This document shows, in pieces, positions 3,623 through 39,291 of a stretch of 40,836 bases of DNA. The translations under genes were made by a program, and so were the position numbers. Numbering within the stretch: position 1 is the stretch's first letter; each line of letters starts with the position of its first letter. Under the pieces are notes generated by a model. It was given only the letters and a program-made list of their open reading frames with translations, was not told the origin of the DNA and made no database searches. This DNA is from a virus, in the IMG/VR virus record IMGVR_UViG_3300034138_000059, positions 1 to 40,836 of that record; one strand, written 5' to 3'.

Positions 3623-4486
3623 TCACGCCTGGGCGGCGTCAACGCGGACGACTTCCGCCAGCTCGCGGTCCAGCCGACGGGCCGACTCCTCGCGCTTCCG
3701 TTCGATCCAGAAGTTGTCCGACCCACCGTGCCGACGGCCCAGCTCGGCCGCCGAGACGTCGTCGAGGCCGGCCAGAGCGGCCAGGATCTCGGCCGCCGCG
3801 GGCCGGCTCGGCGCCGGCCGCTTCATCGAGATCAGCGTCGTCTCGGGCTCGACGGTCGGGCCGACCGCCATCGCCTCCGCTCGGATGCTCTCCGTTCGGA
3901 TCGGGTCCTTCGGAGTCGCCGGCAGGACCGCGAGCGGCTCGGTCAGCGGCGCGTCGCTCGGGAGGATGGTCGGGCCGTTCGGGCTCTCGCTCGGGGTCGC
4001 GCTCGGACGCTCGGGCCGAGCGGCTCGGGTCCGCGCTCGGGTCTTCGGGCTCGCGCTCGGGGTGACGCTCGGGATCTGCTCGGACTCACGCTCGGACTCC
4101 TGCTCGGACCGCTCAGGCTCGGGCTCGGCCGCTCGGGCCTGCTCGAACTCCAGCGCGAGGGTCATCAGGACGACCGTGGCGATCGGGGCGAGGGCGATGA
4201 TCCGGCCCGAGATCGTCGGCTCGGAGGTCGACAGGGCGGCCCAGCACAACCAGGCGAGCCCGACCAGGGTCATCAGCCAGCCGACGATCGCCTTCGGCGA
4301 GTACCGGAGCTTCCAGACCCCGATCAGGATCAGGATGTCCGGCACGAAGGAGAGCGCGAGCTGGCGCCAGCCGTCGGTCCGGTGCTGGCCCAGGTGGTCG
4401 AAGACGTGCGAGACGTTCCAGGCCAGCACGCCGGCCCAGGCGACCGCGGTCACGCGCGTCATCCATCGACGCTCGCTCGGCGGCAT
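3623..4486 (-). CDS. DUF2637-like membrane protein with low-complexity linker and C-terminal domain (287 aa; the track ORF extends to 4549)
   Basis: N-terminal hydrophobic helices with LSFVPDILILIG, as in DUF2637 proteins of actinomycete conjugative elements and phages, followed by a Ser/Glu/Pro-rich linker. I prefer the ATG at 4486 (GGGAGA RBS 8 nt upstream), because the 21 codons up to 4549 have only about 60% GC3. Confidence 0.7.
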   Translation of the reverse strand: MPPSERRWMTRVTAVAWAGVLAWNVSHVFDHLGQHRTDGWRQLALSFVPDILILIGVWKLRYSPKAIVGWLMTLVGLAWLCWAALSTSEPTISGRIIALAPIATVVLMTLALEFEQARAAEPEPERSEQESERESEQIPSVTPSASPKTRARTRAARPERPSATPSESPNGPTILPSDAPLTEPLAVLPATPKDPIRTESIRAEAMAVGPTVEPETTLISMKRPAPSRPAAAEILAALAGLDDVSAAELGRRHGGSDNFWIERKREESARRLDRELAEVVRVDAAQA

Positions 4487-4585
4487 CGGACGGGTCTCCC
4501 AGAGCTTCACGTTCGGATCTCCTTCGGGTCGTTCGGGTCGACGGGACATCGACGTTCGGGACGTGCGCTCGGGTCGGTGCTCGGA

Positions 4586-4902: not shown

Positions 4903-5283
4903 CTACTTGTCGGCGGCGAAGTCGCCCGAGCTGGCCTTCTGGCCCCCGAGCATCTGCTCCTCCTCGGCGATGGCGGCCGAGAGGTTCCGGGCGGCCTCCT
5001 CCATGTGGGCCGCGGCGTTGAAGTAGAGCTTCCGGATCTTGCGGGCCGTCAGGATCTTGTCGATCCGCAGCCCCCAGCGGCTCGTCTTGCGGAGCTTCTG
5101 GTAGACGGCCTCGCCGGCCGAGTAGTACCCGTCGGCCCCCTGGACCTCCCGGGCGCGGCACTTCTCGGTGGCGGCGATCAGCTCGCTCGTCGTGCCGGCG
5201 GCCTCGACCGCTCGGGCCGGGTGGCGCACCGGGGCGGTGCCCTGGGCGGCCGGACGGGACCTCGTGCTCGTTTCCATGATCAT
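4903..5283 (-). CDS. Hypothetical 126-aa protein
   Basis: C-terminal part of track ORF 4903..5385. Start at MIMETSTRS (ATG at 5283, alternative at 5277). Helical, Lys/Arg/Ala/Glu-rich C-terminal half. Confidence 0.65.
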   Translation of the reverse strand: MIMETSTRSRPAAQGTAPVRHPARAVEAAGTTSELIAATEKCRAREVQGADGYYSAGEAVYQKLRKTSRWGLRIDKILTARKIRKLYFNAAAHMEEAARNLSAAIAEEEQMLGGQKASSGDFAADK

Positions 5284-5295
5284 CTCACTCTCTGT

Positions 5296-5464
5296 AGCGT
5301 CGGAGCGTTGTGTCGGGCTTGTGTCGGATGCGTCGGAGGCCTGGAGGCCGTTGTGTCGGCGAGGCTCTGACCTGCACCGACGCAACTTGCGTCGGCCGAC
5401 GCATCCCTAGGGAAATGAGCCCCGTGCGGGCACTTGCGTCGGCGCCGTGGCGGACGCCGACGCG
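5296..5464. repeat. Array of ten TG(C/T)GTCGG / CCGAC(G/A)CA 8-mers (clt-like candidate cis site)
   Basis: Forward copies at 5296, 5309, 5320, 5329, 5352, 5388 and 5435. Reverse copies at 5377, 5396 and 5457. Perfect palindrome TGCGTCGGCCGACGCA at 5388-5403. Confidence 0.85.
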
Positions 5465-5466
5465 AG

Positions 5467-7881
5467 TCACTCGTAGTGAGCGTCCGGGTCCTCGCCCGGC
5501 TCGTCACCCGTGGACGGGATGGGCGGGTTGAGGACCCCCAGGCGGACCTTCCAGCTCGCCGGCCGGCGCCCGCGGGCGGACGCCACGCGCTCCGCGAAGC
5601 CGAGCGCGGCCAGCTTGTGCAGCCGCTCGCCGAGGGCCGCTCGCGGGTTGCCGTAGCTGAAGATCCCGGTCTCGGCCCACAGCTCGCCGAGCGTCGACGT
5701 GTCGACCTCGATCCACTCCGGGTTGCCCTTCTTCGCGAAGATCCCTCGGAAGACCTCGATCAGGGCGGCGTCGGCCTCCTCCGGCGTCATCACCTTCTGC
5801 GGCAGCTCGTCGCCGAGGACCATGTCGTCCTCGGGGTCGACGGGCTCCAGCGCCCGTGAGACCCGCGGGTCGATGCCCTCGACGAGCTGGCGGGACTCCT
5901 CGTCGTCGTACAGCTCGCGCGCCTCCTGGCGGGCTTCGCTCTGGTCGATCGAACGCATCTCGTCCTCCTCCTCTTCGGCCGTGATCGGCCCCTGGTTGGT
6001 CTGCAACTTCCCCAGCTCCTCCTCGACGCTGGTCGCCCGGCTCGGGAGGGCGGGCGGGAACTCTGTCGTGACGCCGGCCGCCTGGAGGGCGGGGACGGCG
6101 ATCTCGGCGACCGCGCGGACGGCGGCCTCGGGCGTGCCGGCCGGCGGCGTCATCAGCTCGACCTCGTGCGCCTCCATCCAGTCCTCGCGGTTGCAGCGCT
6201 GGCGCTCCTGGTAGGTCTTGCCGTAGGCGCCCATCGAGGCGATCGAGCCCTGGTCGAGCTTCGCCATGACCGGCGCCCACCACGCGACGTGCCAGTGCAG
6301 GACGTCGGGCGGGATCGGCAGGAAGGTCCGGGCCGGCATCGCCCAGCGCTCCTGGGCGACCAGGGTCGACTCCAGGTAGGACATGCCGGGCTTCGCGTCG
6401 GCCCAGGCCCCCGGGTCGGCGCCGTAGGAGAGCGTCGTGTCCGACAGGGCCATGTTCGCGTCCGAGCTGTCCTTGATCCCGAAGCACCAGCCCCCGCCCA
6501 GCGACGAGCGGAGCGAGGTGTTTATGTTGTCCGCGCTCGCCCGCTGGAGCGAGATCGAGAGCGAGATCCCGACCGACCGGACCTGCTCGCCGAGGCGGAC
6601 GATGTCCTTGTCGAAGAACTCGGCGACGTCGGCGAACTCCTCGATGTGGACGATCAGGTATGGCAGCTTCAGGTGCTTCCAGGCGTCCGGGGTCCACTGC
6701 CGACCCTCGGCCTTGAACTTCTTCTTCAGCAGCGCGAGCGCGCCGGCCCGGTAGTTGACGATGAAGCGGAGGGCCTTCGCCATCGCCGCGGCCTCGGGCT
6801 TGCCGGTCGCGCACCAGTCGACGGCCGGCAGGATGTCGTCCGCGGTCTGGGCGCCCTTCACGGTGTCGACCCACCAGAGGACGACGTCGGGACGGGTGAC
6901 GATCTCGCTCACCTCGTGCAGCTCGGCCTCGGTCTTGCCGGCGCCCGGCATGCCCATGACGAGGTAGGACCGGGCGTTGCGGCCCTTCTTCGGGTCGCCC
7001 GGCCGCACCATCTCGAAGGCCGAGCCGTCCTCGTACCGGCCGAGCCGGCACGGCTCGGCGATCGACTGCCCCGGCCGGCTCGGCCCGGGCCAGGGCGCGG
7101 ACTCGGCGAGGACGTCCTTCGTCACCAGGGTCAGCCGGGTCTTGGAGGCGTCGGTCGGGTCGGGGATGACCCGAGCCGCGGTCGGGGGCAGGCCGGCGAG
7201 CGAGAGCAGGTCCGGCATGCCCTTCGCGATGCTCGCCGACTGCGCGCCCTTGTGCGACAGCACGAACTCGTGACGGACGCCGTCCTCGGACGGCTCGTGC
7301 TTGACGACCCGGACCTTCGCCTTGACGCCGAGGATCTCGGCCAGGTCGTCCGACCCGTCGGTCTGCGGGTGCTCGTCGTGACCCTCGCCCATCACGGCGC
7401 GGGAGCGACGGATGTTCCAGCTCAGCGCGACGAGCGCGGCGAGCAGCGAGTGGCCGTCGACCCAGGGGCGCTGCACCCAGAGGGTCAGCGGTCCGCCCGT
7501 GCTGTCGACGCTGACGAAGCCGATCAGGGTCGTGACCGCGACCGACAGGAGCGCGAAGCCGACGGTCACGGCGGCGCGCCACCGCGTGTAGTCGCCTCGG
7601 GGCTTCGCTTCGTGCAGGGTCACCCAGGCGAAACCGGCGCCCGCGAGCACCAGGACCGCGGCGATGGCGAAGCGCCAGCCAGTCTGGCCCCAGACCGCGT
7701 GCGCGATCATGCCGGCGGCCGGCACGGCCACGAAGCCGCCGATCCACGGACCGAGGTACTCGTCCAGGTCGGTCCCGGGGATGAAGTCGAACCAGCTCTT
7801 CTTCCGCTCGCGGGGCTGGCGCCGCGGTGCCGGAGCCGGCTTCCGGCCGGACGGGCGGGGCTTGCGGGTCGTCGAGGCCAT
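5467..7881 (-). CDS. FtsK/SpoIIIE-family DNA translocase, TraB-like (804 aa, N-terminal TM helices)
   Basis: Walker A GMPGAGKT, Walker B-like YLIVHIEEFADV, and an FtsK-type segment SLQRASADNINTSLRSSLGGGWCFGIKDSSD. Three to four N-terminal hydrophobic helices. C-terminal about 100 aa look like a winged helix. GAAGGAGGA RBS lies 7 nt upstream of the ATG at 7881. Confidence 0.9.
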   Translation of the reverse strand: MASTTRKPRPSGRKPAPAPRRQPRERKKSWFDFIPGTDLDEYLGPWIGGFVAVPAAGMIAHAVWGQTGWRFAIAAVLVLAGAGFAWVTLHEAKPRGDYTRWRAAVTVGFALLSVAVTTLIGFVSVDSTGGPLTLWVQRPWVDGHSLLAALVALSWNIRRSRAVMGEGHDEHPQTDGSDDLAEILGVKAKVRVVKHEPSEDGVRHEFVLSHKGAQSASIAKGMPDLLSLAGLPPTAARVIPDPTDASKTRLTLVTKDVLAESAPWPGPSRPGQSIAEPCRLGRYEDGSAFEMVRPGDPKKGRNARSYLVMGMPGAGKTEAELHEVSEIVTRPDVVLWWVDTVKGAQTADDILPAVDWCATGKPEAAAMAKALRFIVNYRAGALALLKKKFKAEGRQWTPDAWKHLKLPYLIVHIEEFADVAEFFDKDIVRLGEQVRSVGISLSISLQRASADNINTSLRSSLGGGWCFGIKDSSDANMALSDTTLSYGADPGAWADAKPGMSYLESTLVAQERWAMPARTFLPIPPDVLHWHVAWWAPVMAKLDQGSIASMGAYGKTYQERQRCNREDWMEAHEVELMTPPAGTPEAAVRAVAEIAVPALQAAGVTTEFPPALPSRATSVEEELGKLQTNQGPITAEEEEDEMRSIDQSEARQEARELYDDEESRQLVEGIDPRVSRALEPVDPEDDMVLGDELPQKVMTPEEADAALIEVFRGIFAKKGNPEWIEVDTSTLGELWAETGIFSYGNPRAALGERLHKLAALGFAERVASARGRRPASWKVRLGVLNPPIPSTGDEPGEDPDAHYE

Positions 7882-11752: not shown

Positions 11753-12106
11753 GGTGCGGTCCTCTCTCGGGTGCAGGTGGGTCACCGAGAAGGCCTTCGA
11801 GGTAGCGGCGGGCTCGCGTATCGGTCGTGCGGCCTTCCCCGTGCTGCACAGGGGCAGGATGTCCCACCCGGACACGACAAGCAACATTCCGTGTCCACGG
11901 ATGCCCCGTTGTCACGCTCCGTGAGTCCTCCAGAGCGTTACATCGGATGTTCACCCCAGGACAGCCCCGGCCGATCGGCCGTCTTGAATGAGACTCGGCG
12001 AACCGCTTGACAGTCCCAGACCGGACCCTCATCCTGGGACTACGGCCAAGGAGGGCCACACAGGGCCACGGGCCCTGACCGGACACCGAGAGAGGAGGCG
12101 GACCGC
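11753..12106. promoter_or_regulatory. Second divergent control region (candidate immunity switch)
   Basis: Candidate promoter: TTGACA 12007-12012, 17-nt spacer, CATCCT 12030-12035. It is overlapped by inverted repeat AGTCCCAG 12012-12019 / CTGGGACT 12034-12041. Second inverted repeat GGACACG 11870-11876 / CGTGTCC 11890-11896. GGATGTCCC at 11857-11865. Confidence 0.6.
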
Positions 12107-12319
12107 ATGAGCCCCACCGAGAAGACCTGGAGCCTCGCCGAGGCCGCCCTGCTCGTCGGCTGCTCGGCCCGCACCCTCCGTCGGAAGCACGCCCTGAAGC
12201 AGGTCGGCGCGATTCGCGTCGGAGGGCACCCGACCCGCGGGCCGCTCCGCTTCACCGAGCAGGACATCGCTACGGCCCGCGCCCTCTGTTACCGGCGCGT
12301 CGAGGCCGAAGCCGCATAG
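12107..12319 (+). CDS. Helix-turn-helix DNA-binding protein, excisionase/MerR-like (70 aa; Cro-like or Xis-like)
   Basis: WSLAEAALLVGCSARTLRRKHAL HTH. GAGAGGAGG RBS. First rightward gene after the control region. Confidence 0.8.
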   Translation: MSPTEKTWSLAEAALLVGCSARTLRRKHALKQVGAIRVGGHPTRGPLRFTEQDIATARALCYRRVEAEAA

Positions 12320-12421
12320 ACATCCGGGCGCGGGCGGCATGCCGAGGCACCCGCTCGCGTCCGGGATCAACTTCCACATCGCGTCGCCTGTCCCGTCGAC
12401 GCACGACAGAAAGGCCCCATC

Positions 12422-12808
12422 GTGAGCGCTCCCCGCTTCGTCTCCGGTCGGTGCCGGACGCACGAGTTCGTGACGGCCGACCCCGCCCTCTTCGAGCAGC
12501 ACATGGTCGGCGAGCACGGCAAGAAGTCCCGGACGGCGTCGGCCGGACGGGCGACCACCTGGCGCACCCCGAACCGCGTGCCGGAGGCGAAGGCCCAGGC
12601 CGCGGCCGGCATGGTCACGGTGGCCGGGCTCGTCGACGGCGAGCTGCTCGCCCAGGTCGTCGGCCCCGCGGCGTGGCCGCGCACCTCCTGGGTCATCCCG
12701 GCCACGCCGACCGGCCGCGAGTTCCAGGGCTGCCTCCTGGTCCGCACCGAGGGCGACCGCCTGGTCGAGGTCAACCACGACCACCTCGTGAATCGACGGG
12801 CCGCCTGA
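12422..12808 (+). CDS. Hypothetical 128-aa protein
   Basis: Track ORF with GTG start and plausible composition. Its stop overlaps the next start (ATGA-type). Confidence 0.7.
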   Translation: MSAPRFVSGRCRTHEFVTADPALFEQHMVGEHGKKSRTASAGRATTWRTPNRVPEAKAQAAAGMVTVAGLVDGELLAQVVGPAAWPRTSWVIPATPTGREFQGCLLVRTEGDRLVEVNHDHLVNRRAA

Positions 12809-13146
12809 TGCCGCGCCGCCGCTTCTTCCGCGACTCGGCCGACTGGCGCAGTCGGGCCGCCTGCTTCCACGACGGCGACCCGGAGGCCTTCTTCCCCTTC
12901 GGCGACGACCACAAGGACGAGCCGTCGCCCCGGACCCAGGCCCTCCTCGACGAGGCGAAGGCCTTCTGCCAGACCTCCGGCCCCGGGGGGACCGCGTGCC
13001 CCGTCATCGCCGCCTGCCTGGAGGACGTCCTGTCCTCCGAGGGCTCGAACACCTTCGGCGTCCGCGGCGGGACCGACCCGGCCGAGCGTCGGCGCATCCT
13101 CCGTCGCCGCCGCGACTCGGCCCGCGCCCTTCAGGTCGCGTCGTGA
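12808..13146 (+). CDS. WhiB-like transcriptional regulator with atypical Cys spacing (112 aa)
   Basis: Four Cys (AAC19F, FC54Q, TAC64P, AAC70L). GVRGG turn in place of GVWGG. Arg-rich C-terminus. Cys spacing is C-x9-C-x5-C instead of the usual C-x2-C-x5-C. Confidence 0.7.
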   Translation: MPRRRFFRDSADWRSRAACFHDGDPEAFFPFGDDHKDEPSPRTQALLDEAKAFCQTSGPGGTACPVIAACLEDVLSSEGSNTFGVRGGTDPAERRRILRRRRDSARALQVAS

Positions 13147-14897
13147 GCGGCCTCCTGAAGCTCCGCGACTACCAGACCGAGACGATCGCCGCCCTCCAGG
13201 ACTCCTGGGACCGCGGGGTCCGACGGCCGGCCGCGGTGCTCCCCACCGGGGCCGGGAAGACCGTGGTCTTCGCGCACCTGTCGAAGGAGTTCACGGCCAC
13301 CTACGCCGCGAAGCGCGTGCTCGTGCTGGCCCACACGGACGAGCTGGTCACCCAGGCCGCGAGCAAGATCCGCGCCGTGGCCCCGCACCTGTCGGTCGGC
13401 ATCGTCAAGGCCGAGCGGAACGAGGTCAACCGCACGATCGTGGTCGCCTCGGTGCAGTCCCTGCGCTCGAAGGCCCGGCTCGACCAGCTCCGGAACATCG
13501 GGCTCGTCATCGTCGACGAGTGCCACCACGCGACGGCCCCGACCTACCGGCGCATCCTGGAGCACTTCGGCGCCCTCGGGGAGACCGAGGTCGACTCCGA
13601 GACCCTGGTCGCCGGCTTCACGGCGACGCTCGCCCGCGGCGACCGGGCCTCGCTCGCGGACGTGTGGCAGGAGGTCGCCTACCGGCGCGACATCGCCTTC
13701 ATGATCCGCAAGCGCTACCTCGTGAACGTCCGCGGCAAGCGCGTCCAGGTCGACGACCTCGCGCTCGACAAGGTGAAGAAGACCGGCGGCGACTTCGCGA
13801 TCGGCGACCTCGGCGACAAGCTCGAAGCCTCCCTCGCACCCGAGGTCATCGCGAAGGCCTACGTCGAGCACGCGGCCACCCGGTCCGGCATCCTCTTCGC
13901 CCCCACGGTGAGCGCGGCCGGCGCCTTCGCAGACGCCCTGAACGACGAGGGGATCAAGACCGAGGTCGTCCACGGCGAGCTTCCCCCGGGCGAGCGGCGC
14001 GAGATCCTCGGCCGCCTCCACGACGGGACGACCCAGGTCATCGCCAACTGCATGGTCCTGACCGAGGGCTTCGACTCCCCGCGGGTCTCGTGCGTCGTCG
14101 TGGCCCGCCCGACGAAGTCGGCGCCCCTGTATCAGCAGATGGTCGGCCGGGGCCTGCGGGTCGACCCCGAGTTCCCCTACGAAGACCAGGACTGCCTGAT
14201 CCTCGACGTCGTCGGGGCGAGCGCGACGCACGGCCTCGCGAGCCTGATCGACCTGTCCGAGAAGCCGATCGAGCTGAAGGACGGCCAGACCCTCACCGAC
14301 GCCGAGGACGAGTTCGACGAGCGGGACGGCCTCGACGCCCCGGTCTGGATCAAGCCGATCCACAACGGCCCCGTCCTGGTGAAGGACTTCGACCCGATCG
14401 TCGCGGCGAGCGCGAAGGTCTGGAATCGCTCGCGGGCCGGCATCTACTTCCTGTCGACCGGCACCCGCGACGACTCGGCCTTCGTCTTCCTGATCCCGGC
14501 CGTCGACCCCGAGGCGCCGGTCGGCACCTTCGACGTCGCCTGGGCCACGAAGAAGCGCGGCGTGCCGTTCTACGCCCCCGGCCGGCCCGAGCACCGGCAG
14601 TCCGGCGGCATCACCGAGCACACCTCCCTCTCGCTGGAGATGGCCCGGTCCTGGGGTGAAGACCTCGCCGACGACCTGGGCGGGGCCGAGGGCGCGATGA
14701 CCCTCGACAAGCAGCGGGCCTGGCGCAAGCAGAAGCCGTCCGAGCCCCAGCTCCGGTTCGCCCGCGGCCTCGGGATCGAGATCCCCGAGGGGGCCTCGAA
14801 GGGCGACCTCTCCTTCCTGATCGAGGGGCACCAGGCGTCGCACCGGATCGACGAGATCGCCAGCTACTTCGACACGCAGAGAGGACACGCGGCATGA
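13143..14897 (+). CDS. Superfamily-2 DEAD/DEAH-box DNA helicase (584 aa)
   Basis: Walker A LPTGAGKT, Walker B VIVDECHHA, FTATLARGD, and helicase C-terminal motifs (TEGFDSP, QQMVGRGLR). The GTG at 13143 overlaps the WhiB-like stop (GTGA). Confidence 0.9.
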   Translation: MSGLLKLRDYQTETIAALQDSWDRGVRRPAAVLPTGAGKTVVFAHLSKEFTATYAAKRVLVLAHTDELVTQAASKIRAVAPHLSVGIVKAERNEVNRTIVVASVQSLRSKARLDQLRNIGLVIVDECHHATAPTYRRILEHFGALGETEVDSETLVAGFTATLARGDRASLADVWQEVAYRRDIAFMIRKRYLVNVRGKRVQVDDLALDKVKKTGGDFAIGDLGDKLEASLAPEVIAKAYVEHAATRSGILFAPTVSAAGAFADALNDEGIKTEVVHGELPPGERREILGRLHDGTTQVIANCMVLTEGFDSPRVSCVVVARPTKSAPLYQQMVGRGLRVDPEFPYEDQDCLILDVVGASATHGLASLIDLSEKPIELKDGQTLTDAEDEFDERDGLDAPVWIKPIHNGPVLVKDFDPIVAASAKVWNRSRAGIYFLSTGTRDDSAFVFLIPAVDPEAPVGTFDVAWATKKRGVPFYAPGRPEHRQSGGITEHTSLSLEMARSWGEDLADDLGGAEGAMTLDKQRAWRKQKPSEPQLRFARGLGIEIPEGASKGDLSFLIEGHQASHRIDEIASYFDTQRGHAA

Positions 14898-16048
14898 GCC
14901 CCCAGACCGACCCGCTCGCCGGCATCTCGCCGGCACTCCGGCCCCTGTACCAACAGGAGGTCGACAAGGGGAAGATCGGCCAGGACGAGCACGGCACCTG
15001 GCGCTGGTACTGGACGACGCCCGAGGGCGACAAGATCCTGACCTCCGGCGTCGTGGTGGACCCGTTCACGGGCAAGCTCGCCCGGTACAAGCGCGTGACC
15101 AGCTTCAACAAGGTCGTCCACGACCGGGCCGCGCTCGACGCCTGGACGCTGCGCGAGATCGTCGCCTCGGTGGTGAAGCACCCCGACCTGATCGCCGAGG
15201 CCCGGGTCGCGGCCGGTGCCGACGACGACCAGGAGCGGAAGAAGAAGCTCAACAAGGTGCTGAAGAAGGTCCGCGAGCGCTCGAACATGGGCGCCGCGGC
15301 CACCCTCGGCTCGGCGATCCACGCGGCCACCGACGCCGCCCGCCAGGGCAAGTCGATCCCGGATCTCGGGGAGTTCGCCCCCGACGTCGAGGCCTACCTG
15401 AAGGCGATCAGGCCCTTCATGATCGTCGACTCCGAGCAATTCGGCGTGAGCGACCAGTACCGGATCTGCGGGTCCTGGGACTGCACCTTCGGCATCCGCG
15501 GCTCGGGTCGACCGGCGTTCCGGGTCGACACGAAGACCGGCCGGATCGACCTGAACTACCTCGACGAGGTCGCCCAGCAGCTCGGCAGCTACGCCGTGAT
15601 GCAGCCGTACGACCAGCGCACCGGGGAGCGTGGCGACTCGGGCGAGCTGGACATGACCCGCGCCCTGGTCGTCAAGGTCTGGCCCGGCCAGGCGAAGACC
15701 GACCTCATCTGGGTGCCCCTGGAGAAGGCCATGCGGACCCTGCTCCCCCTGTCCCAGCGGATCTTCGACGCTCGCCAGGGGCAGACGCACGGGTACATGT
15801 TCGACCTGTCGCAGGAGGTCGGCGCCGTCGGCGTCATCGACCACGCGGACCCGATCGAGCAGGCGATTTCCTCGCTCGCGGGTGACCCCGAGCAGGTCAA
15901 GGCCGGGCTCCTCGCCATCTGGCAGGCCAACCAGGCCACCTGGGGCACCAGGGCCGAGCACTACAAGGCCCTCGGGGACCAGCGCCTCGCGGACGCCGCC
16001 CGGGACGTCGTCGTCCAGGCCGGCCTCGCCGCCCCCGCGGCGGCATAG
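14894..16048 (+). CDS. PD-(D/E)XK exonuclease, RecB/Cas4-like (384 aa)
   Basis: GSAIHAA, FRVDTKTGR (D-x-K) and QQLGSYAV (Q-x3-Y) motifs. ATGA overlap with the helicase gene. Confidence 0.7.
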   Translation: MSPQTDPLAGISPALRPLYQQEVDKGKIGQDEHGTWRWYWTTPEGDKILTSGVVVDPFTGKLARYKRVTSFNKVVHDRAALDAWTLREIVASVVKHPDLIAEARVAAGADDDQERKKKLNKVLKKVRERSNMGAAATLGSAIHAATDAARQGKSIPDLGEFAPDVEAYLKAIRPFMIVDSEQFGVSDQYRICGSWDCTFGIRGSGRPAFRVDTKTGRIDLNYLDEVAQQLGSYAVMQPYDQRTGERGDSGELDMTRALVVKVWPGQAKTDLIWVPLEKAMRTLLPLSQRIFDARQGQTHGYMFDLSQEVGAVGVIDHADPIEQAISSLAGDPEQVKAGLLAIWQANQATWGTRAEHYKALGDQRLADAARDVVVQAGLAAPAAA

Positions 16049-16760: not shown

Positions 16761-18983
16761 GTGACCATGAACGACCAGCGGCACGACGAGGGCGACGTCG
16801 GTCCCTTCGCGCGGGCCGCCCTCCACTACCGCCGGGCGGGCTGGCTGGGGACCATCCCGCTCCCGGCGGGCAAGAAGGTCCCCCCGCCCGAGGGCTGGAC
16901 GGGCTGGAAGGCCGGCGAGCGCTACCCGAGCGCGGCCGACGTGCAGACCTGGCTCGACGAGGGCGCAGGCGCCGGGAACATCGGCCTGCGGATGCCGGCG
17001 AACGTGGTCGGCCTCGACGTCGACGACTACGTGAAGGGCGAGGTCACGAAGACCGGCCTCGCCGCGGTCGCCGAGCTGGAGGCCCGGTGGGGCCAGCTCC
17101 CCCCGACGTGGCGCTCGACGAGCAGGGCCGACGGCCGGTCGGGCATCCGGCTCTACCGGGTGCCGGCTGGCCTGCGCTGGCCGACCCAGGCCGCGCCCTC
17201 CATCGAGATGATCCACTCGGGGCACCGCTACGCCGTGGCCGCGCCCTCGATCCACCCGGACACCCGGGTCGCCTACACGTGGATCGGTCCGGACGGCACG
17301 ACCGGGGTCGACGTGCCGAACGTCGACGACCTGCCGCTCCTGCCGACGACCTGGGTCGACGGCCTGAAGAAGGACGGCGCGGCCGGGGCCTACGAGTCGA
17401 CCGGCGTCGAGCTGGACGGGTACATCGAGTCGCTCCGCGAGGGCCGGGGCGAGCCGTGCCGCTTCGTCGTCGAGCAGCTCGACGGGCTCCGCGAGGCCGT
17501 CGAGGGCAAGTCCGGCGAAGGCCGGCACGACGCCGTCAACGAGCGCGTGATGGCGATCGTGCGGGCCGGGCAGATGGGGCACGCCGGGGTCGAGCGCGTG
17601 CTGCGCGAGGGGTACCGGCTCTGGATCGAGGGCATGACCCCGGTCCGGGGCGTGGCCGGCGCCCAGTCCGAGTGGGACCGCTCGGTCGACGGGGCGATCG
17701 ACAAGGTCGGCCCCCGGCCGTCGAGCGCGCGGTGCTTGTGCCGCACCGAGGCCGAGCAGGCCGACCAGGAGGCCTACTTCGAGGGCCTGGCGGCCAAGAC
17801 CACCGAGGCGGCGATCCAGACCGTCCAGGACGCCCTCGCGGCCGGCGAGCCCGTGCCCACCACCGGGGACTACATGCTCGACGAAGCGATCCGGCGCCAG
17901 CGAGTGCAGCGGACCGCGCGCCGGATCGTCGACGCCGAGGAGGCCGAGGCCGAGCTGGCCCGCGCCGACTTCGGCTCGGAGTTCCTGACCCGCGCCCAGC
18001 TCGCCAGCCTGCCCAAGCCCCTGCCCCTGATCCACGGCGTGCTCGCCCGGACCTCGACCATCCTCCTGCGGGGCCGCGACGCCAGCTTCAAGTCCTTCGT
18101 CGCGATCGACTGGGCGCTCTGCATCGCCACCGGCACGCCGTGGCTCCACCGGGACACCGAGCAGGGCCGGGTGCTCTACGTCATGGGCGAGGGCGCGCCG
18201 GGGCTCAACGACCGCGTGAGCGCCTGGGAGGAGGCCCGCGGGCTCCAGGTGCCCGACGACGCCTTCGTCGTCCGGGCGAGCCCCGTGAACCTCTTCAAGG
18301 GGGGCGGGGCCTACCTCGACCTCCTGCGGCGCGTCCAGGACGGGGGCTTCTCCCTGATCGTCCTCGACACGCTCCGCAAGGTCTCCGGGGGCGCGGACGG
18401 CAACGGGTCGGACATGGGCGTCGTGGTCGACCGGATCGAGGAGCTTCGTCGGGCCACGGTGGACGGCGGCAACGGGGCCATCCTCACGATCGCCCACACG
18501 GCGAAGGACGACGTCGACACCCGCGGGTACTCCGGCATCGAGGACGACCAGGACATCATCTGGCACTGCATCCGAAAGGAGGAGGGCTCGCCGCACTTCG
18601 CCCTCCGGAACTCGAAGCAGAAGAACGACCGCGAGACCGACGAGATGCAGCTCTCCACCCGGGCCGTGGGGCCGTCCCTGGTCGTCGAGTCCCTGGCGGC
18701 CGGCTCCCGGGTGGTCGAGGACCAGGGCAACGCCGCCCGTCGGGTCTGGCAGGTACTGGTCGGGTGCGACCAGACCGGGATCACCCAGAAGGCCATGACC
18801 GACGACTTCAAGATCCCGAAGACCACCGCCGTGCGCTACCTGAACCGCTGGGTCACCGAGGGGCGGGTCCGCAAGTCCGGCTCGATCTACTACGCCGACC
18901 GCACCCAGACCCCGGAGTTCGACGACGCCCTGAAGGCCTCCTGGGGGACCGCGGAGAGCGCGCCCGAGGGGTGGGCGTCGTGA
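16761..18983 (+). CDS. Bifunctional primase-polymerase / RecA-like (AAA_25-type) helicase with C-terminal winged-helix-like domain (740 aa)
   Basis: N-terminal prim-pol signature (AALHYRRAGWLGTIPLPAGKKVPPPEGWTG...LDVDD...HRYAVAAPSIHP). Central P-loop-like region (LLRGRDASFKSF...VLYVMGEGAPG...LIVLDTLRK). C-terminal GITQKAMTDDFKIPKTTAVRYLNRWVTEGRV. Start is the GTG at 16761 or the ATG at 16767. Confidence 0.85.
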   Translation: MTMNDQRHDEGDVGPFARAALHYRRAGWLGTIPLPAGKKVPPPEGWTGWKAGERYPSAADVQTWLDEGAGAGNIGLRMPANVVGLDVDDYVKGEVTKTGLAAVAELEARWGQLPPTWRSTSRADGRSGIRLYRVPAGLRWPTQAAPSIEMIHSGHRYAVAAPSIHPDTRVAYTWIGPDGTTGVDVPNVDDLPLLPTTWVDGLKKDGAAGAYESTGVELDGYIESLREGRGEPCRFVVEQLDGLREAVEGKSGEGRHDAVNERVMAIVRAGQMGHAGVERVLREGYRLWIEGMTPVRGVAGAQSEWDRSVDGAIDKVGPRPSSARCLCRTEAEQADQEAYFEGLAAKTTEAAIQTVQDALAAGEPVPTTGDYMLDEAIRRQRVQRTARRIVDAEEAEAELARADFGSEFLTRAQLASLPKPLPLIHGVLARTSTILLRGRDASFKSFVAIDWALCIATGTPWLHRDTEQGRVLYVMGEGAPGLNDRVSAWEEARGLQVPDDAFVVRASPVNLFKGGGAYLDLLRRVQDGGFSLIVLDTLRKVSGGADGNGSDMGVVVDRIEELRRATVDGGNGAILTIAHTAKDDVDTRGYSGIEDDQDIIWHCIRKEEGSPHFALRNSKQKNDRETDEMQLSTRAVGPSLVVESLAAGSRVVEDQGNAARRVWQVLVGCDQTGITQKAMTDDFKIPKTTAVRYLNRWVTEGRVRKSGSIYYADRTQTPEFDDALKASWGTAESAPEGWAS

Positions 18984-19039
18984 CCACCTGGACCCCGACA
19001 CGCCCGGGTGCAGAAATCGAAGACACGCCGCATTTTCCA

Positions 19040-19295
19040 GGTACCACCCCCCCTGGTACCTGGCCTGTTGATCATGCCCTGGTACCTGTTGTGGCACCTG
19101 CTCTGACCTGCGCGTCTCTCTATGTGAGACGGGCTTGGTACCTGGGTGGTACTTCGGTTGCCGATGTTGTGGCACCTGCTCTGACCTGCACTTGGTACCT
19201 CTGGTACCTGGGTGGTACTTCGCCTGGCACCTCCCTCCACCCCCCGGTCCTTTAGGACCGGGGGGGTGGTACCTGGGACCTGGGACCTGGAACCC
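19040..19295. repeat. Iteron-like repeat array (putative replication origin)
   Basis: GGTACC at 19040, 19055, 19081, 19137, 19194, 19203 and 19268. GGTACT at 19148 and 19214. 24-bp direct repeat at 19088-19111 and 19166-19189. 21-bp direct repeat at 19136-19156 and 19202-19222. Hairpin at 19237-19269. 7-bp tandem ACCTGGG at 19271-19293. Confidence 0.8.
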
Positions 19296-19325
19296 CTATC
19301 GAACGTCGACGAGAGGAGCCCGAAG

Positions 19326-19799
19326 ATGACCGACAGCCGCGCACCCAACCCGACCGGCACGCCTGCCCGGCCGGCGACCGACCAGGAGATGTCGAAGGGC
19401 GCCCTCGCCCTCCGCGCCTCGGCCCTGAAGGCCGGCTGGCGCGCTCGGGCCGACTACGCCCAGGGCTGGGCCACCGTGACGACGATGGTCGAGGACCGCG
19501 GCGCCGAGCTGACCCCGACCGGCCGGGTCGCCCGGAAGAAGGTCACCGAGGACGCCCTGGTCGATTCCGTCGTCCTGCGGCTGGAGCACCCTCTCGGCGC
19601 GAGCGCGGTCGTCGCCTACGAGGACGGCAAACCCGTCGACGCCTGGGTCTGGGCGACCGGCCTCGCCGCCGGGGTCGCCCGATCGAGCGTGACGGCCATC
19701 TCGACCCTCGTGAAGGGCACCGGCCCGGAGGTCACCGACGCCGAGGTCGCCGACCTCGACGAGTACGACCTGGACCCCGACCTGGAGAGTGCGGCGTGA
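19326..19799 (+). CDS. Hypothetical 157-aa protein
   Basis: C-terminal part of track ORF 19212..19799. ATG at 19326 with a GAGAGGAG RBS. The upstream part overlaps the repeat array and is rejected. Confidence 0.75.
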   Translation: MTDSRAPNPTGTPARPATDQEMSKGALALRASALKAGWRARADYAQGWATVTTMVEDRGAELTPTGRVARKKVTEDALVDSVVLRLEHPLGASAVVAYEDGKPVDAWVWATGLAAGVARSSVTAISTLVKGTGPEVTDAEVADLDEYDLDPDLESAA

Positions 19800-20338
19800 A
19801 GATCATCGGCATCGACCCGAGCCTGACGGCCCCCGGCTTCGCCGGCATCGTGAACGGGCGCGTGGTGGGCACCGAGACCTACGTGCCCTCGAAGATCAAG
19901 GGCCGCGTGACCGAGCAGGCCCGCCACCGTCGCCTCGCCGAGATCCTCGTCGTCGCTCGGGACTGGGCCACCGGGGCCGACCTCGTCGTGATCGAGGGCC
20001 TGGCCTACGACGGGCACGACACGATGCGCCAGCTCGCCGGTCTGCACTGGCTCCTGCGGCACTCGCTCTGGAGCGGCGACCGCACGGTGGCCCTGGTGAC
20101 GCCGAGCAGCCTGAAGGCCTTCGCCACCGGCCGCGGCGGGGCCGACAAGGACGACATGTTGGCCCTGGCCCGCCAGAGCTTCCCCGGGGTCGAGATCGGC
20201 GACCACAACGCCGCGGACGCCCTCTGGCTCGCCGAGACAGGAGCCGCGCACCTGGGATGTCCCGTCCTGGACACGTCAGCCGAACGGGTGACCCACATCC
20301 AGGGCGTTACGTGGCCGAAATCGGACCTTGCAGCATAG
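19796..20338 (+). CDS. RuvC-like Holliday junction resolvase (180 aa)
   Basis: IIGIDPS (catalytic Asp), VVIEGLAY (Glu) and GDHNAADALWLA (Asp/His) motifs in RuvC order. GTGA overlap with the upstream gene. Confidence 0.8.
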   Translation: MKIIGIDPSLTAPGFAGIVNGRVVGTETYVPSKIKGRVTEQARHRRLAEILVVARDWATGADLVVIEGLAYDGHDTMRQLAGLHWLLRHSLWSGDRTVALVTPSSLKAFATGRGGADKDDMLALARQSFPGVEIGDHNAADALWLAETGAAHLGCPVLDTSAERVTHIQGVTWPKSDLAA

Positions 20339-22319: not shown

Positions 22320-22497
22320 TTCAACGATCATGACCTCGATGCATCAGGGCAGGTCAGGGGCGTGATCATCAGAAACGTTTGCATCAGCGCAGGTCAGCCC
22401 CATGATTTTTTGGGGGCCGCCCGCCCGTCGACCCCACGCACAGTCGAAAAATCTCACACCGGGTAGCGCCTAGGGCGCCTGACGTCAGGAGGCCCCG
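22320..22497. other. Candidate cos / terminase recognition region
   Basis: Low-GC gap between the HNH block and terS. 17-bp direct repeat GCATCAG(G/C)GCAGGTCAG at 22341-22357 and 22381-22397. GATCAT motifs. T6 run at 22405-22411. Confidence 0.45.
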
Positions 22498-22929
22498 GTG
22501 CCCGAGGACCGCAAGGCCGTGACGCTCCGGCTCCCGCTCCCCCTCCTGAAGGCCATCGACACGGCCTGCCTGGCCGAGGGCACGCCCCGGCACGACTGGC
22601 TGGTCGCCGCCCTCTTCGTGGCGCTGGCCGAGGGGGCCGTCGAGCAGGACGTCGGGCACGTCGAGCGCAAGACCCGGCAGGACATCGAGGCGCTCGTCTG
22701 CTCGCACCCGATGGGCGAGTCGCTCGCGGCGATGGCCTTCAACCTGGCGCGCACCCTCGACCAGGGCGCCGGCCAGCTCCAGGCCGCGCTCGCCCGCGAG
22801 CTGCGCGCGACGCTGAACGACCTCGCGAAGTACGAGCACGGAGGGGCGCCGGATGACGACGACGCTCCAGACCTCGGCGCGCCCGCGCTGGGCAACGCCT
22901 CGGACGACGACCCGTCCGACCCTTGGTAG
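22498..22929 (+). CDS. terS: Terminase small subunit (143 aa)
   Basis: Sits immediately before the large subunit. N-terminal DNA-binding-like segment, helical middle, acidic tail. GTG with an AGGAGG RBS. Confidence 0.7.
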   Translation: MPEDRKAVTLRLPLPLLKAIDTACLAEGTPRHDWLVAALFVALAEGAVEQDVGHVERKTRQDIEALVCSHPMGESLAAMAFNLARTLDQGAGQLQAALARELRATLNDLAKYEHGGAPDDDDAPDLGAPALGNASDDDPSDPW

Positions 22930-24337
22930 GCAGGCCGCCGAGCTGACCGAGCACTACCTCGGCCGCCGGCTGATGCCCTGGCAGAAGCAGGTCGCCGCGG
23001 TCGCGCTGGAGGTCGACCCCGACACCCAGCTCCCGGCCTACCGCACGGTGGTCCTCACGGTCCCCCGGCAGTCCGGGAAGTCGACCTTGATCCTGAGCCT
23101 GTTCCTCCAGCGCTGCATGAGCGAGTTCTGGAAGGCGAGCGGTCGGCCGGACGGCCCGACGCCGGGGCGTCAGCGCTGCATCTACGCGGCGCAGACGCAG
23201 AAGGACGCCCGGCAGAAGTGGGAGTCCGACTACGTCGCCGACATGGAGGCGAGCCCGAAGCTCGCCGGCAAGTTCGACGTCTACCGCGGCTCCGGCCGCG
23301 AGTCGATCCGCTTCCCGAACCGCTCCTCGATCGGCATCACGGCGAACACCGAGAAGGCCGCGCACGGCCAGGTGCTCGACATGCCGGTCGTGGACGAGGC
23401 CTTCTCGCTGGTCGACGACCGGCTCGACCAGGCCTTCGTCCCGGCCATGTCGACCCGCCGACAGGGCCAGCTCTGGATCGTCTCGACGGCCGGCACTCCG
23501 GACTCCTTGTACCTGAAGGCGAAGGTCGACAAGGGCCGCGAGCTGGTCGAGGCCGGCACGACGAGCGGGCTCGCCTACTTCGAGTGGAGCGCGCCCGAGG
23601 ACGCCGACCCCGACGACGAGGAGGCCTGGGCGCGCTGCATGCCCGCCCTCGGCCACACGATCGACCTCTCGGTCGTGCGTGCCGCGCGCCAGACGCTCTC
23701 CACCGGGGAGTTCCAGCGCGCCTACCTCAATCAGTGGATCGACCGCGACGCCGGGGAGCGGGTCATCTCGGCCGAGCACTGGAATCGCTCCTTCGACCCC
23801 GACTCGGAGGTCGAGGGCCGGGTCGTCCTCTCGCTCGACGTCAGCCGCGACCGCGACTGGTCGTGCATCGGCATGGCCGGTCACCGCGACAACCGCGAGC
23901 GCGTCCACGTCCAGACCGTCGCACACGGCCCCGGCACCGACTGGGTCGTCCGCGAGCTGGGCCACCTGCGCGAGCAGGTCGGCCCCCGGGTCCTGGTGCT
24001 CGACGCCGCCGGCCCCGCCGGCTCCATGCTCCCCGAGCTGGTCGCCGACGGCTGGGAGCTGGGCGAGACCCTGATCGTGACCGGCGCCCGCGAGATGGCC
24101 CAGGCCTGCGGCGCCTTCTACGACGACGTCGTCAACGACCGGGTCCGCCACGTCCGCCAGCCTGAGCTGGAGGCCGCGGTCAGCGCCGGCCGCAAGCGCG
24201 AGCTACTCGATACCTGGGCCTGGGGCCGCAAGGCCTCCAGCTCGGACATCACGCCCCTGGTCGGCGTGACGCTCGCGCACTGGGCGCTCTCCGTGAAGCC
24301 CGACAAGTCCTACGACCCGCTGAAGAGCTTCTACTGA
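22853..24337 (+). CDS. terL: Terminase large subunit (494 aa)
   Basis: Walker A VPRQSGKST. Walker B-like MPVVDEAF. C-terminal nuclease-like region (LSLDVSRDRDW). GGAGG RBS before the ATG at 22853. Overlaps terS by 77 nt. Confidence 0.9.
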   Translation: MTTTLQTSARPRWATPRTTTRPTLGRQAAELTEHYLGRRLMPWQKQVAAVALEVDPDTQLPAYRTVVLTVPRQSGKSTLILSLFLQRCMSEFWKASGRPDGPTPGRQRCIYAAQTQKDARQKWESDYVADMEASPKLAGKFDVYRGSGRESIRFPNRSSIGITANTEKAAHGQVLDMPVVDEAFSLVDDRLDQAFVPAMSTRRQGQLWIVSTAGTPDSLYLKAKVDKGRELVEAGTTSGLAYFEWSAPEDADPDDEEAWARCMPALGHTIDLSVVRAARQTLSTGEFQRAYLNQWIDRDAGERVISAEHWNRSFDPDSEVEGRVVLSLDVSRDRDWSCIGMAGHRDNRERVHVQTVAHGPGTDWVVRELGHLREQVGPRVLVLDAAGPAGSMLPELVADGWELGETLIVTGAREMAQACGAFYDDVVNDRVRHVRQPELEAAVSAGRKRELLDTWAWGRKASSSDITPLVGVTLAHWALSVKPDKSYDPLKSFY

Positions 24338-38855: not shown

Positions 38856-38979
38856 CCCACCTACCCCGGCCGGGGCCGCCCGTGTGGGCGGGCCGCCTCG
38901 GCCGGGCCTTCAACCGTGAGACGACCCCGGGGGGAACCTCTTGCTCTCTGACCTGTCCGACATCTTCCGCGAGGGCGGC

Positions 38980-39291
38980 ATGTCCGCGCCGGCCTGGGCC
39001 TTCTTCACGACGATCCTGGCCGCGCTGATCGCCCTCCTCCGCGAGTCGATCCAGGCCCGGCACGCCGCGAACGACGCGAAGAAGGCCGCCGGCCGCGCCT
39101 CCGACCAGATCGACGAGGTCCGCAAGCTCTCGGAGCCCACCGGCAACGGCTTCGCCGAGAAGGTGCTGAGAGGCCAGGAGGACATCGTCATGCGCCTGAA
39201 GCGTCTGGAGACCGGCCAGGACGCACAGGCGAGCACGCTGATGGCGCACCTCCTGGAGCACGACCGCAAGCACGACCACCCCATCGACTGA
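38980..39291 (+). CDS. Membrane protein with N-terminal TM helix and coiled-coil tail (103 aa; the track ORF starts at TTG 38941)
   Basis: WAFFTTILAALIALL helix. GAGGG RBS 5 nt before the ATG at 38980. First gene of the lysis cassette. Confidence 0.65.
   Translation: MSAPAWAFFTTILAALIALLRESIQARHAANDAKKAAGRASDQIDEVRKLSEPTGNGFAEKVLRGQEDIVMRLKRLETGQDAQASTLMAHLLEHDRKHDHPID

Follow-up and report, generated by a model that had tools for sequence, protein, structure and literature searches.

The alpha protein of satellite phage P4 brings together in one polypeptide a primase, a helicase and a C-terminal winged helix, which binds the origin by reading short iterons, and the TraB protein of Streptomyces, a hexameric motor, recognises by means of its C-terminal winged helix the short repeats (clt) present at the 3' end of its own gene. 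In the staphylococcal pathogenicity islands (SaPIs) the replication origin (ori) directly follows rep, and the initiator binds iterons of 5-6 nt through a C-terminal winged helix (PMC9371898); in pRN1 the origin is found just 3' of ORF904, a gene for a prim-pol/helicase/winged-helix protein, an arrangement that the authors also proposed for some phages (PMC4234260). For actinobacterial phages, a limited full-text search retrieved no study of origins of this kind, and the origins that it did return were those of a prophage RepA and the RNA-based ones of cluster A mycobacteriophages. Here, we report on a 342-bp gap (positions 18984-19325) in a viral DNA of 40,836 nt, IMG/VR record IMGVR_UViG_3300034138_000059, positions 1-40,836, hereafter called the window, which, judged from its gene order, is the ~41-kb genome of a temperate actinobacterial tailed phage. 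The gap carries an array of directional iterons and two copies of a further element, the CTCTGACCTGC box, immediately 3' of the gene for a presumed initiator, and this layout recurs 3' of homologous genes. We consider it probable, though well short of certain, that the gap is the replication origin of the phage, at which the initiator would load beside its own gene.

The gap had been singled out in an earlier note, made from the letters of the sequence, as a non-coding array of GGTACC-rich iterons. It is indeed non-coding, since the upstream gene ends at the stop codon 18981-18983 and the following one starts from the ATG at 19326, behind the ribosome-binding site GAGAGGAG (19311-19318), a start shared by the gene calls of three independent assemblies, all of a variant nearly identical to this phage. 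The GC content is 63% in the gap and 72% in the window. All of the GGTACC sites described (19040, 19055, 19081, 19137, 19194, 19203 and 19268) and both GGTACT sites (19148 and 19214) are present, and GGTACC is in fact over-represented, with 16 copies in the 40.8-kb window, seven of them in the gap, against 4.4 ± 2.2 in shuffled sequences. The repeat unit, however, is not this palindrome but a directional 7-mer, TGGNACY, which the gap contains 14 times in forward and once in reverse orientation, and GGTACC is a by-product of the N being mostly T. The concentration is very marked: 13 of the 23 TGGNACC copies of the window fall within 255 bp, where the density of the remaining sequence would predict about 0.06, and no second TGGNACY cluster exists anywhere else in the 40.8 kb.

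The array begins 54 nt past the stop codon of the primase-helicase gene with a single inverted iteron, CCAGGTACCA, on the minus strand (19037-19046), which forms its left edge. The iterons and boxes that follow are on the plus strand. Three iterons at 19054-19098 (TGGTACC at 19054 and 19080, TGGCACC at 19092) end 2 nt before box A, CTCTGACCTGC (19101-19111), and three others at 19136-19176 (TGGTACC at 19136, TGGTACT at 19147, TGGCACC at 19170) end 2 nt before box B, CTCTGACCTGC(AC) (19179-19189). Between the two modules lies a small hairpin, CGTCTC-N7-GAGACG (19113-19131; –8.6 kcal/mol, z = –5.4), and the second repeat module is devoid of it. After box B come four iterons (19193-19231, at 19193, 19202, 19213 and 19225, with spacings of 9, 11 and 12 bp), whose GGNAC cores are at +13, +22, +33 and +45 from the box, then a GC-rich hairpin of 33 nt, CCACCCCCCGGTCC-TTTA-GGACCGGGGGGGTGG (19237-19269, 254 nt past the stop codon), and finally four head-to-tail iterons (19267-19294: TGGTACC, TGGGACC, TGGGACC, TGGAACC), which constitute the 7-bp tandem repeat already noticed, extending over 4.0 copies. 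The right border is a gene for a protein of 157 aa (19326-19799, plus strand), without any match in Pfam, PHROGs or NCBIfam. Within the gap there is also a 100-bp stretch (start 19120, z = 3.5) whose duplex ranks third in the genome for low stability.

The exact direct repeats reported for this region can be understood within the same layout. The longer one, with its period of 78 bp, measures 25 rather than 24 nt (19087-19111 and 19165-19189), and the 21-nt repeat is exact at 19136-19156 and 19202-19222; they are duplicated 'iteron plus box' and 'iteron pair' modules, respectively. Part of the longer repeat, CTCTGACCTGC, is an element in its own right, a box conserved over a wide range of elements and without specificity for origins. 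The hairpin at 19237-19269 has the predicted 14-bp stem (14 pairs with one bulge; DNA fold –16.8 kcal/mol, z = –3.9). It could be an origin structure or an intrinsic terminator lacking a U-tail, its sequence being generic: more than 120 unrelated metagenome contigs, whatever their GC content, contain the pattern CCCC-GTCCTTTAGGAC-GGGG, which was discarded as a marker of the family.

The gene upstream of the array (16767-18983, plus strand; the longest open reading frame (ORF) starts at the GTG 16761) encodes the presumed initiator, consisting of an N-terminal Prim-Pol primase of the archaeo-eukaryotic primase (AEP) type, a central RecA-type AAA_25 helicase and a C-terminal winged helix. Pfam detects PF09250 at aa 20-178 (E 2e-19) and PF13481 at aa 409-584 (E 1e-30) and no other domain, and the PHROGs families are DNA primase and helicase; NCBIfam has no model that matches the protein, and a sequence search of the PDB gave no match. 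The winged helix (aa ~655-715, encoded at 18723-18905 on the plus strand, with recognition helix PKTTAVRYLNRW) is a prediction of AlphaFold2, in which residues ~655-715 adopt an H-H-H-beta-beta layout with a predicted local distance difference test (pLDDT) score of 88-96. The best PDB matches of this C-terminal domain in Foldseek are winged helices (Zalpha, IclR, MarR and ArsR), with target-normalised TM-scores of at most 0.79 and weak E-values, as is expected for such a small and generic fold. In comparison with the 67% identical relative described below, it is also the most diverged region of the protein, the last 140 aa being 35-48% identical and the other parts 50-90%.

The three parts that had been assigned to this protein are all recognisable in it; 'P4-alpha-like' holds by analogy alone, as AAA_25 (PF13481) is not a D5/SF3 helicase. 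The window protein shares with P4 alpha the three-part logic with a C-terminal winged helix, predicted in its fold, but the proteins named 'P4 family primase' in databases carry D5_N/DUF5906 SF3 domains, which it does not have, and the more distant homologues that bear the 'P4 family' name carry PF08706/PF19263. Furthermore, the iteron sequence is different, and the parallel with the crr of P4 fails because the window has no second, crr-like cluster of TGGNACY. The window protein does not belong to the family of P4 alpha.

A resemblance in layout can be seen with the Rep and PriRep proteins of SaPIs, in which ori is directly 3' of the initiator-helicase gene, 6-12 copies of a short iteron are read by a winged helix, the specificity differs between elements, the helicase loads itself and, in SaPI5, primase and helicase are fused in one chain (PMC9371898). 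The SaPI Reps, however, are AAA+ helicases of the SF3 or MCM-like type rather than RecA-type AAA_25; their ori consists of opposed iteron sets flanking an AT-rich centre, while in the window the orientation is 14:1 without an AT-rich core, and the CTCTGACCTGC boxes have no described SaPI counterpart. ORF904 of the Sulfolobus plasmid pRN1 is likewise an AEP prim-pol joined to a helicase and a winged helix, with an essential cis element containing a stem-loop 3' of the gene (PMC4234260); it differs by its SF3 helicase, by a stem-loop of ~100 nt and by the lack of iterons at the proposed origin, where the window has AAA_25, a hairpin of 33 nt and a dominant iteron array. In function, the locus also recalls oriV of RSF1010/R1162, with the iteron binder RepC, the RepA-type hexameric helicase and the primase RepB', which starts at the hairpin signals ssiA and ssiB adjoining the iterons (in part after PMC8567376), although in that system three separate proteins and 20-mer iterons perform what is fused in the window protein. 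As for TraB and clt, the window has a pair of its own, the TraB homologue at 5467-7881 and an array at 5279-5466, in which the repeats are different; TraB, moreover, is a conjugation DNA translocase and not a replication initiator. The element of the window would work like the SaPI, pRN1 and P4 systems and belongs to none of them.

The relatives of the locus were obtained by protein searches followed by contig look-ups and by an alignment-based scan of viral contigs. A BLAST search of the region against GenBank phages matched only a short Prim-Pol stretch, 68-69% identical, with no annotated close relative, and single-protein locus searches of genome and viral contigs gave no close relatives. 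The most informative comparison is with a 67% identical protein (P0002), found on nine short contigs, among them L001. Here the gene caller had wrongly merged the gap (L001:7384-7665) into the next ORF, in which homology to the 157-aa protein of the window begins at residue 135. The iteron of L001 is CGGAAC, with 13 forward and no reverse copies in the gap and none elsewhere in the 8.3-kb contig. The architecture is nevertheless that of the window: two CTCTGACCTGC boxes preceded by an iteron at –10 in either case, iterons at +13, +22, +33 and +45 after the second box, then the hairpin, which is kept, and then the tandem run. The successive gaps of 23, 23, 9, 11, 12 and 41/42 bp are alike in both. 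As the spacings match while the letters of the repeats have changed, the spacing appears to be under selection; the comparison of repeat conservation proposed in the earlier note has thus given a conserved layout with changed repeats, and arrays that recur at the 3' end of the gene.

The change of letters is accompanied by a change in the protein. In the window the helix PKTTAVRY goes with TGGNACC, and in L001 the helix KKATVSQT goes with CGGAAC; P0003 (L091), with PKTTVYRV, and P0004 (L092), with PKTTFYRW, have the same iteron, GTCCCA (= TGGGAC), yet are only 33% identical overall. Recognition helix and iteron therefore covary in the four closest proteins, and a GGNAC core is common to all four iterons, which suggests, as far as four cases allow, that the iterons of this sub-family drift around a common core and are not replaced wholesale. 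Two of the more remote loci have features of their own. In L091, 42% identical, genes for a DpdA-like protein and for Vut_1, of the queuosine-precursor transporter family, are located upstream of the primase-helicase (L091:3315-4605), suggesting that the DNA of this phage may carry a 7-deazaguanine modification. In L093, 35% identical, two sequences similar to DnaA boxes, TGTGGATAA and TGTGGATAG, are found at the start of the iteron gap (L093:7095-7120), a hint that some members of the family might also recruit the host DnaA.

The association of arrays with this gene extends to the wider family. From 80 viral contigs with more distant homologues, deduplication left 53 loci in which the fused gene measures 600-1000 codons, and in each ~9-kb locus the densest 7-mer cluster was located with respect to the gene, an interval from –350 to +450 bp around the stop codon being counted as its 3' end. 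The cluster was at the 3' end in 32 of the 53 distinct loci, where 5.1 would be expected (binomial p ~1e-19), and arrays with at least six copies were there in 25 cases out of 34. The motifs are phage-specific (for example GCTGACA, GAGGAAC, GTGTAAC, CCAGTTA, ACCTCGT, TGTTCCC, GTTGGAA) and often occur in both orientations. In the lower-GC members L076, L078 and L079 the iteron blocks flank AT-rich spacers, which is the classical layout of an origin, and 19 of 29 family arrays (6 expected) contain a perfectly paired hairpin with a stem of 8 bp or more, which two converging iterons often make up. The gene downstream varies: L092 has a DEAD helicase there, L093 an Mrr nuclease on the opposite strand, and just one of 84 related loci has a homologue of the 157-aa protein; hence the array belongs with the primase-helicase gene. 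The proposal that the array lies 3' of its initiator gene and is read by the C-terminal winged helix thus finds comparative support in its position across the family, in the architecture of L001 and in the predicted, diverged winged helix. The location of an origin within an initiator gene has a precedent in lambda, whose origin lies inside gene O; in nine high-GC relatives (L022, L024, L031, L033, L034, L042, L044, L053 and L063) the array already starts ahead of the in-frame stop of the Prim-Pol/helicase gene, by 80-190 bp, and the repeats may overlap its 3' coding region, or the ends of the ORFs may be miscalled.

Taken as an origin, the locus would operate in the following way. The C-terminal winged helix of the Prim-Pol/helicase would read the TGGNACY iterons, most of which are about one helical turn apart, so that several protein molecules could be aligned on one face of the DNA. 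The two iteron-plus-box modules would probably also draw a conserved box-binding factor that shapes the DNA. The resulting complex would open the stretch from box A to the hairpin, where the duplex is comparatively weak, and extrusion of the hairpin may help; the ring of the RecA-type helicase would then load, the Prim-Pol domain would make the first primer and the host replisome would extend it. We hold this reading with no more than reasonable confidence because everything that concerns function is inferred. Several observations also weigh against it. With 14 of the 15 iterons in the same orientation, the array is unlike the opposed sets of SaPIs, and the helical phasing of ~11 bp is just marginally significant (R = 0.71, matched by 213 of 5000 random placements). 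A discrete AT-rich unwinding element was sought in this gap of 63% GC and was not found, although the low duplex stability around 19120 speaks for local ease of melting, and GC skew is uninformative on the origin because it follows gene orientation. The CTCTGACCTGC box is also present at cos-like, att-like and TraB-associated sites, so that this component of the array has no specificity for origins. Finally, the generic hairpin could terminate the replication operon, and the array could be a regulatory or copy-control site of the same protein rather than a starting point.

In one form of these objections, the gap would be an operon boundary at which the hairpin ends the early replication operon, the iterons act as operators for the winged helix or for another regulator, and replication starts elsewhere; the targets of the control would be the downstream recombination and late genes or the expression of the primase-helicase itself. 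It is well known that plasmid and phage initiators regulate their own synthesis through iterons, the gap separates two gene blocks that run in the same direction and is followed at once by a ribosome-binding site, and the recurrence of CCCC-GTCCTTTAGGAC-GGGG in unrelated contigs is what would be expected of a generic, terminator-type palindrome. Nevertheless, a consensus scan of 18700-19600 found neither a sigma-70-like promoter nor a canonical terminator, the array stays 3' of the Prim-Pol gene even when the next gene is unrelated or on the opposite strand, and 14-15 phased sites, together with the AT-rich spacers of the relatives, go far beyond the needs of an operator. We regard this explanation as unlikely, though deserving to be kept in view. 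A slightly smaller chance is given to the array being an accessory site of the same initiator-helicase, such as a replication enhancer or a locus for copy control or handcuffing like crr of P4 or incA of P1. It would account for a linkage between array and gene, which is all that the evidence shows, for the near-uniform orientation and for the lack of a clear unwinding element, but it requires the true origin to be elsewhere, while the 40.8-kb genome has no other TGGNACY cluster to play this role, and the other arrays of the window have different repeats and different neighbouring genes.

A site for packaging, recombination or DNA transfer, organised around CTCTGACCTGC and bound by the terminase, TraB or a recombinase, is very improbable. 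The box is indeed found upstream of the presumed small terminase gene (22349 and 22389) and in the array beside the TraB-like gene (5365), as well as near the right end of mycobacteriophage Crossroads (at distances of 67 and 154 nt) and beside tRNA-fragment att cores in many prophages. However, the terminase genes are 3.2 kb away and have a box-bearing gap of their own; the iterons differ from site to site (TGGNACY, GCGTCGG, TGCATCAG), each pointing to its own specific binder, and arrays of the TGGNACY type follow the Prim-Pol gene throughout the family, with a sequence that covaries with its winged helix. That the array is a recent local duplication without any function of its own is hardly credible: the exact 25-nt and 21-nt repeats do indicate that a module was recently duplicated, but the spacing is kept base for base in L001, where the letters of the iterons and the spacers have all changed, and the arrangement recurs in 32 loci. 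Other candidates were rejected. A partition site was discarded, as neither ParA nor ParB is present among the ORFs scanned, in a scan that was not exhaustive, and the phage has a tyrosine integrase; the 157-aa protein was discarded as the binder of the iterons on the basis of its position, given how rarely a homologue adjoins the Prim-Pol gene. The preferred interpretation of the gap remains, at the strength given above, a replication origin.

The CTCTGACCTGC box deserves separate consideration. Its 9-mer core occurs five times in the window, where 0.44 copies would be expected: two copies are in the array, one is at 5279-5466 and two, reversed, are at 22349 and 22389. The extended consensus is aaSS-CTCTGACCTGC-RSnWWYGC. 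A full-text search for the sequence of the box returned unrelated primer sequences alone. A scan of viral and genome contigs for two boxes 65-95 nt apart identified 52 viral contigs, of which ~16 are coding repeats and are irrelevant here, and at least 120 genome contigs; among the matches listed, Actinomycetota (including Streptomyces, Micromonospora, Nocardioides, Gordonia, Dietzia and Microbacterium) account for the large majority of the genome contigs, the rest being scattered among other phyla. The remaining viral hits occur in three contexts, namely in phage-specific iteron arrays, of which, among those with a recognisable homologue nearby, four adjoin Prim-Pol/helicase homologues (L135, L140, L218 and L220), upstream of terminase genes or beside HNH genes, and at attachment sites, where they flank 3' fragments of tRNA genes or the 3' end of a methyltransferase gene. 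The box is also seen in two well-studied mycobacteriophages. In Crossroads (L268/L269) the distances of 154 and 67 nt refer to the right physical end of the genome, while near the left end, at 62 nt, there is a degenerate copy. In the attP of L5 (L270:25370-25780) a match of 10 positions out of 11 directly follows the tRNA-Gly core. Local iterons cluster at fixed offsets from the box, –10 to –8 and +22/+23.

Within the window, the box marks two other places. A second array occupies the 188 bp directly 3' of the TraB-like gene (5279-5466), with GCGTCGG/TGTGTCGG repeats in both orientations, hairpins and the exact box CTCTGACCTGCAC at 5365. The gene itself (5467-7881, minus strand) encodes a TraB homologue of 804 aa that matches NCBIfam NF041214 with E 5e-113 and 379 bits, below the equivalog cut-off of 800, is FtsK/SpoIIIE-like in PHROGs and has a weak PDB match to FtsK. 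As a whole, 5279-7881 looks like a TraB/clt transfer module inside an integrase-bearing tailed-phage genome. The other place is the gap at 22320-22497, upstream of the presumed small terminase gene, where the reversed boxes (22349-22357 and 22389-22397) are contained in a 27-nt direct repeat (TGCATCAGsGCAGGTCAG) whose two copies are 40 bp apart. This gap, which is likely the cos or pac recognition region, also includes the 100-bp stretch that ranks second in the genome for low duplex stability (start 22311). A near-box, CTCTGACCTGT, is found at 38946-38956, at the start of ORF 38920-39291 after the block of tail genes.

Different roles were considered for the box. A promoter was rejected because its orientation with respect to the flanking genes of the window is inconsistent and no –10 element stands at a fixed distance, and a shared site for the small terminase because the window and Crossroads have unrelated candidates for this protein. 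Since mIHF and sIHF have been reported without sequence specificity, a site for mIHF is also unsupported, and the near-match in the attP of L5 is a lead only. Our leading guess, a tentative one, is that the box is bound by a conserved architectural factor. More broadly, it is conceivable, although we would not put it higher than that, that the box is a cis element used across actinobacterial mobile elements to mark sites of assembly, of the initiator-helicase at ori, TraB at clt, the terminase at cos and the integrase at att, together with a probably host-encoded factor similar to integration host factor (IHF), which is the corresponding factor in enterobacteria.

The remaining genes of the window agree with a temperate phage. 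A tyrosine integrase gene is at 339-1580 on the minus strand, and the Pfam scan revealed an XRE-type regulator. The replication/recombination block comprises a DEAD/ResIII helicase (~13143-14897), an exonuclease (14894-16048), the Prim-Pol/AAA_25 gene and a RuvC-like resolvase (19796-20338), and the large terminase (22853-24337) is followed by portal, protease and capsid genes. Among the ORFs scanned there was no DNA polymerase gene, no tRNA gene was found in the window and no Rfam family matched near its threshold. A degenerate tandem repeat with a period of 6/12 (TCGGGC, ~25 copies) at 3979-4138 lies within ORF 3623-4585 (minus strand), which has no family match and probably encodes a low-complexity repeat protein.

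A protein of 738 aa, 99% identical to the primase-helicase, is encoded by three metagenome contigs of ~41.3 kb each, whose differing end points indicate that the complete genome is circular or circularly permuted. These sister genomes differ in length from the window by 119 bp upstream of the Prim-Pol gene. They possess a C5 DNA methyltransferase gene (L008:4919-5923) where the window has an unrelated segment (~11804-12808) that includes an excisionase-like helix-turn-helix ORF, and this swap is a mosaic exchange of modules between phages otherwise 99% identical. The gap of the sister genomes differs from that of the window by two bases; GGTACC was therefore rejected as the target of this methyltransferase, since the array is nearly the same with the gene and without it.

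The arrangement described here is itself of a known kind, and what is new is the protein, with its AAA_25 helicase, and the host setting. If the tentative view of the box is correct, an element-specific iteron at a fixed distance from the box would mean that a protein of the mobile element and a common factor bind side by side; the window would then have three such composite sites (19101/19179, 5365 and 22349/22389), and the origin would be one case of an undescribed actinobacterial design rule. The shared CTCTGACCTGC box raises the question of whether Actinobacteria have a sequence-specific architectural factor that is used by phages, plasmids and integrative elements, mIHF being reported as non-specific. 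The comparison of the window with L001, which have the same scaffold and spacing with different iterons and recognition helices, makes the recognition code of the winged helix directly testable. If the gap is an origin, the origins of this large group of phages could be found as phage-specific short repeats 3' of the Prim-Pol/AAA_25/winged-helix gene, and this would be of help for phage-derived vectors, for the prediction of incompatibility and for the study of replication in hosts that include Streptomyces, Mycobacterium and Gordonia.

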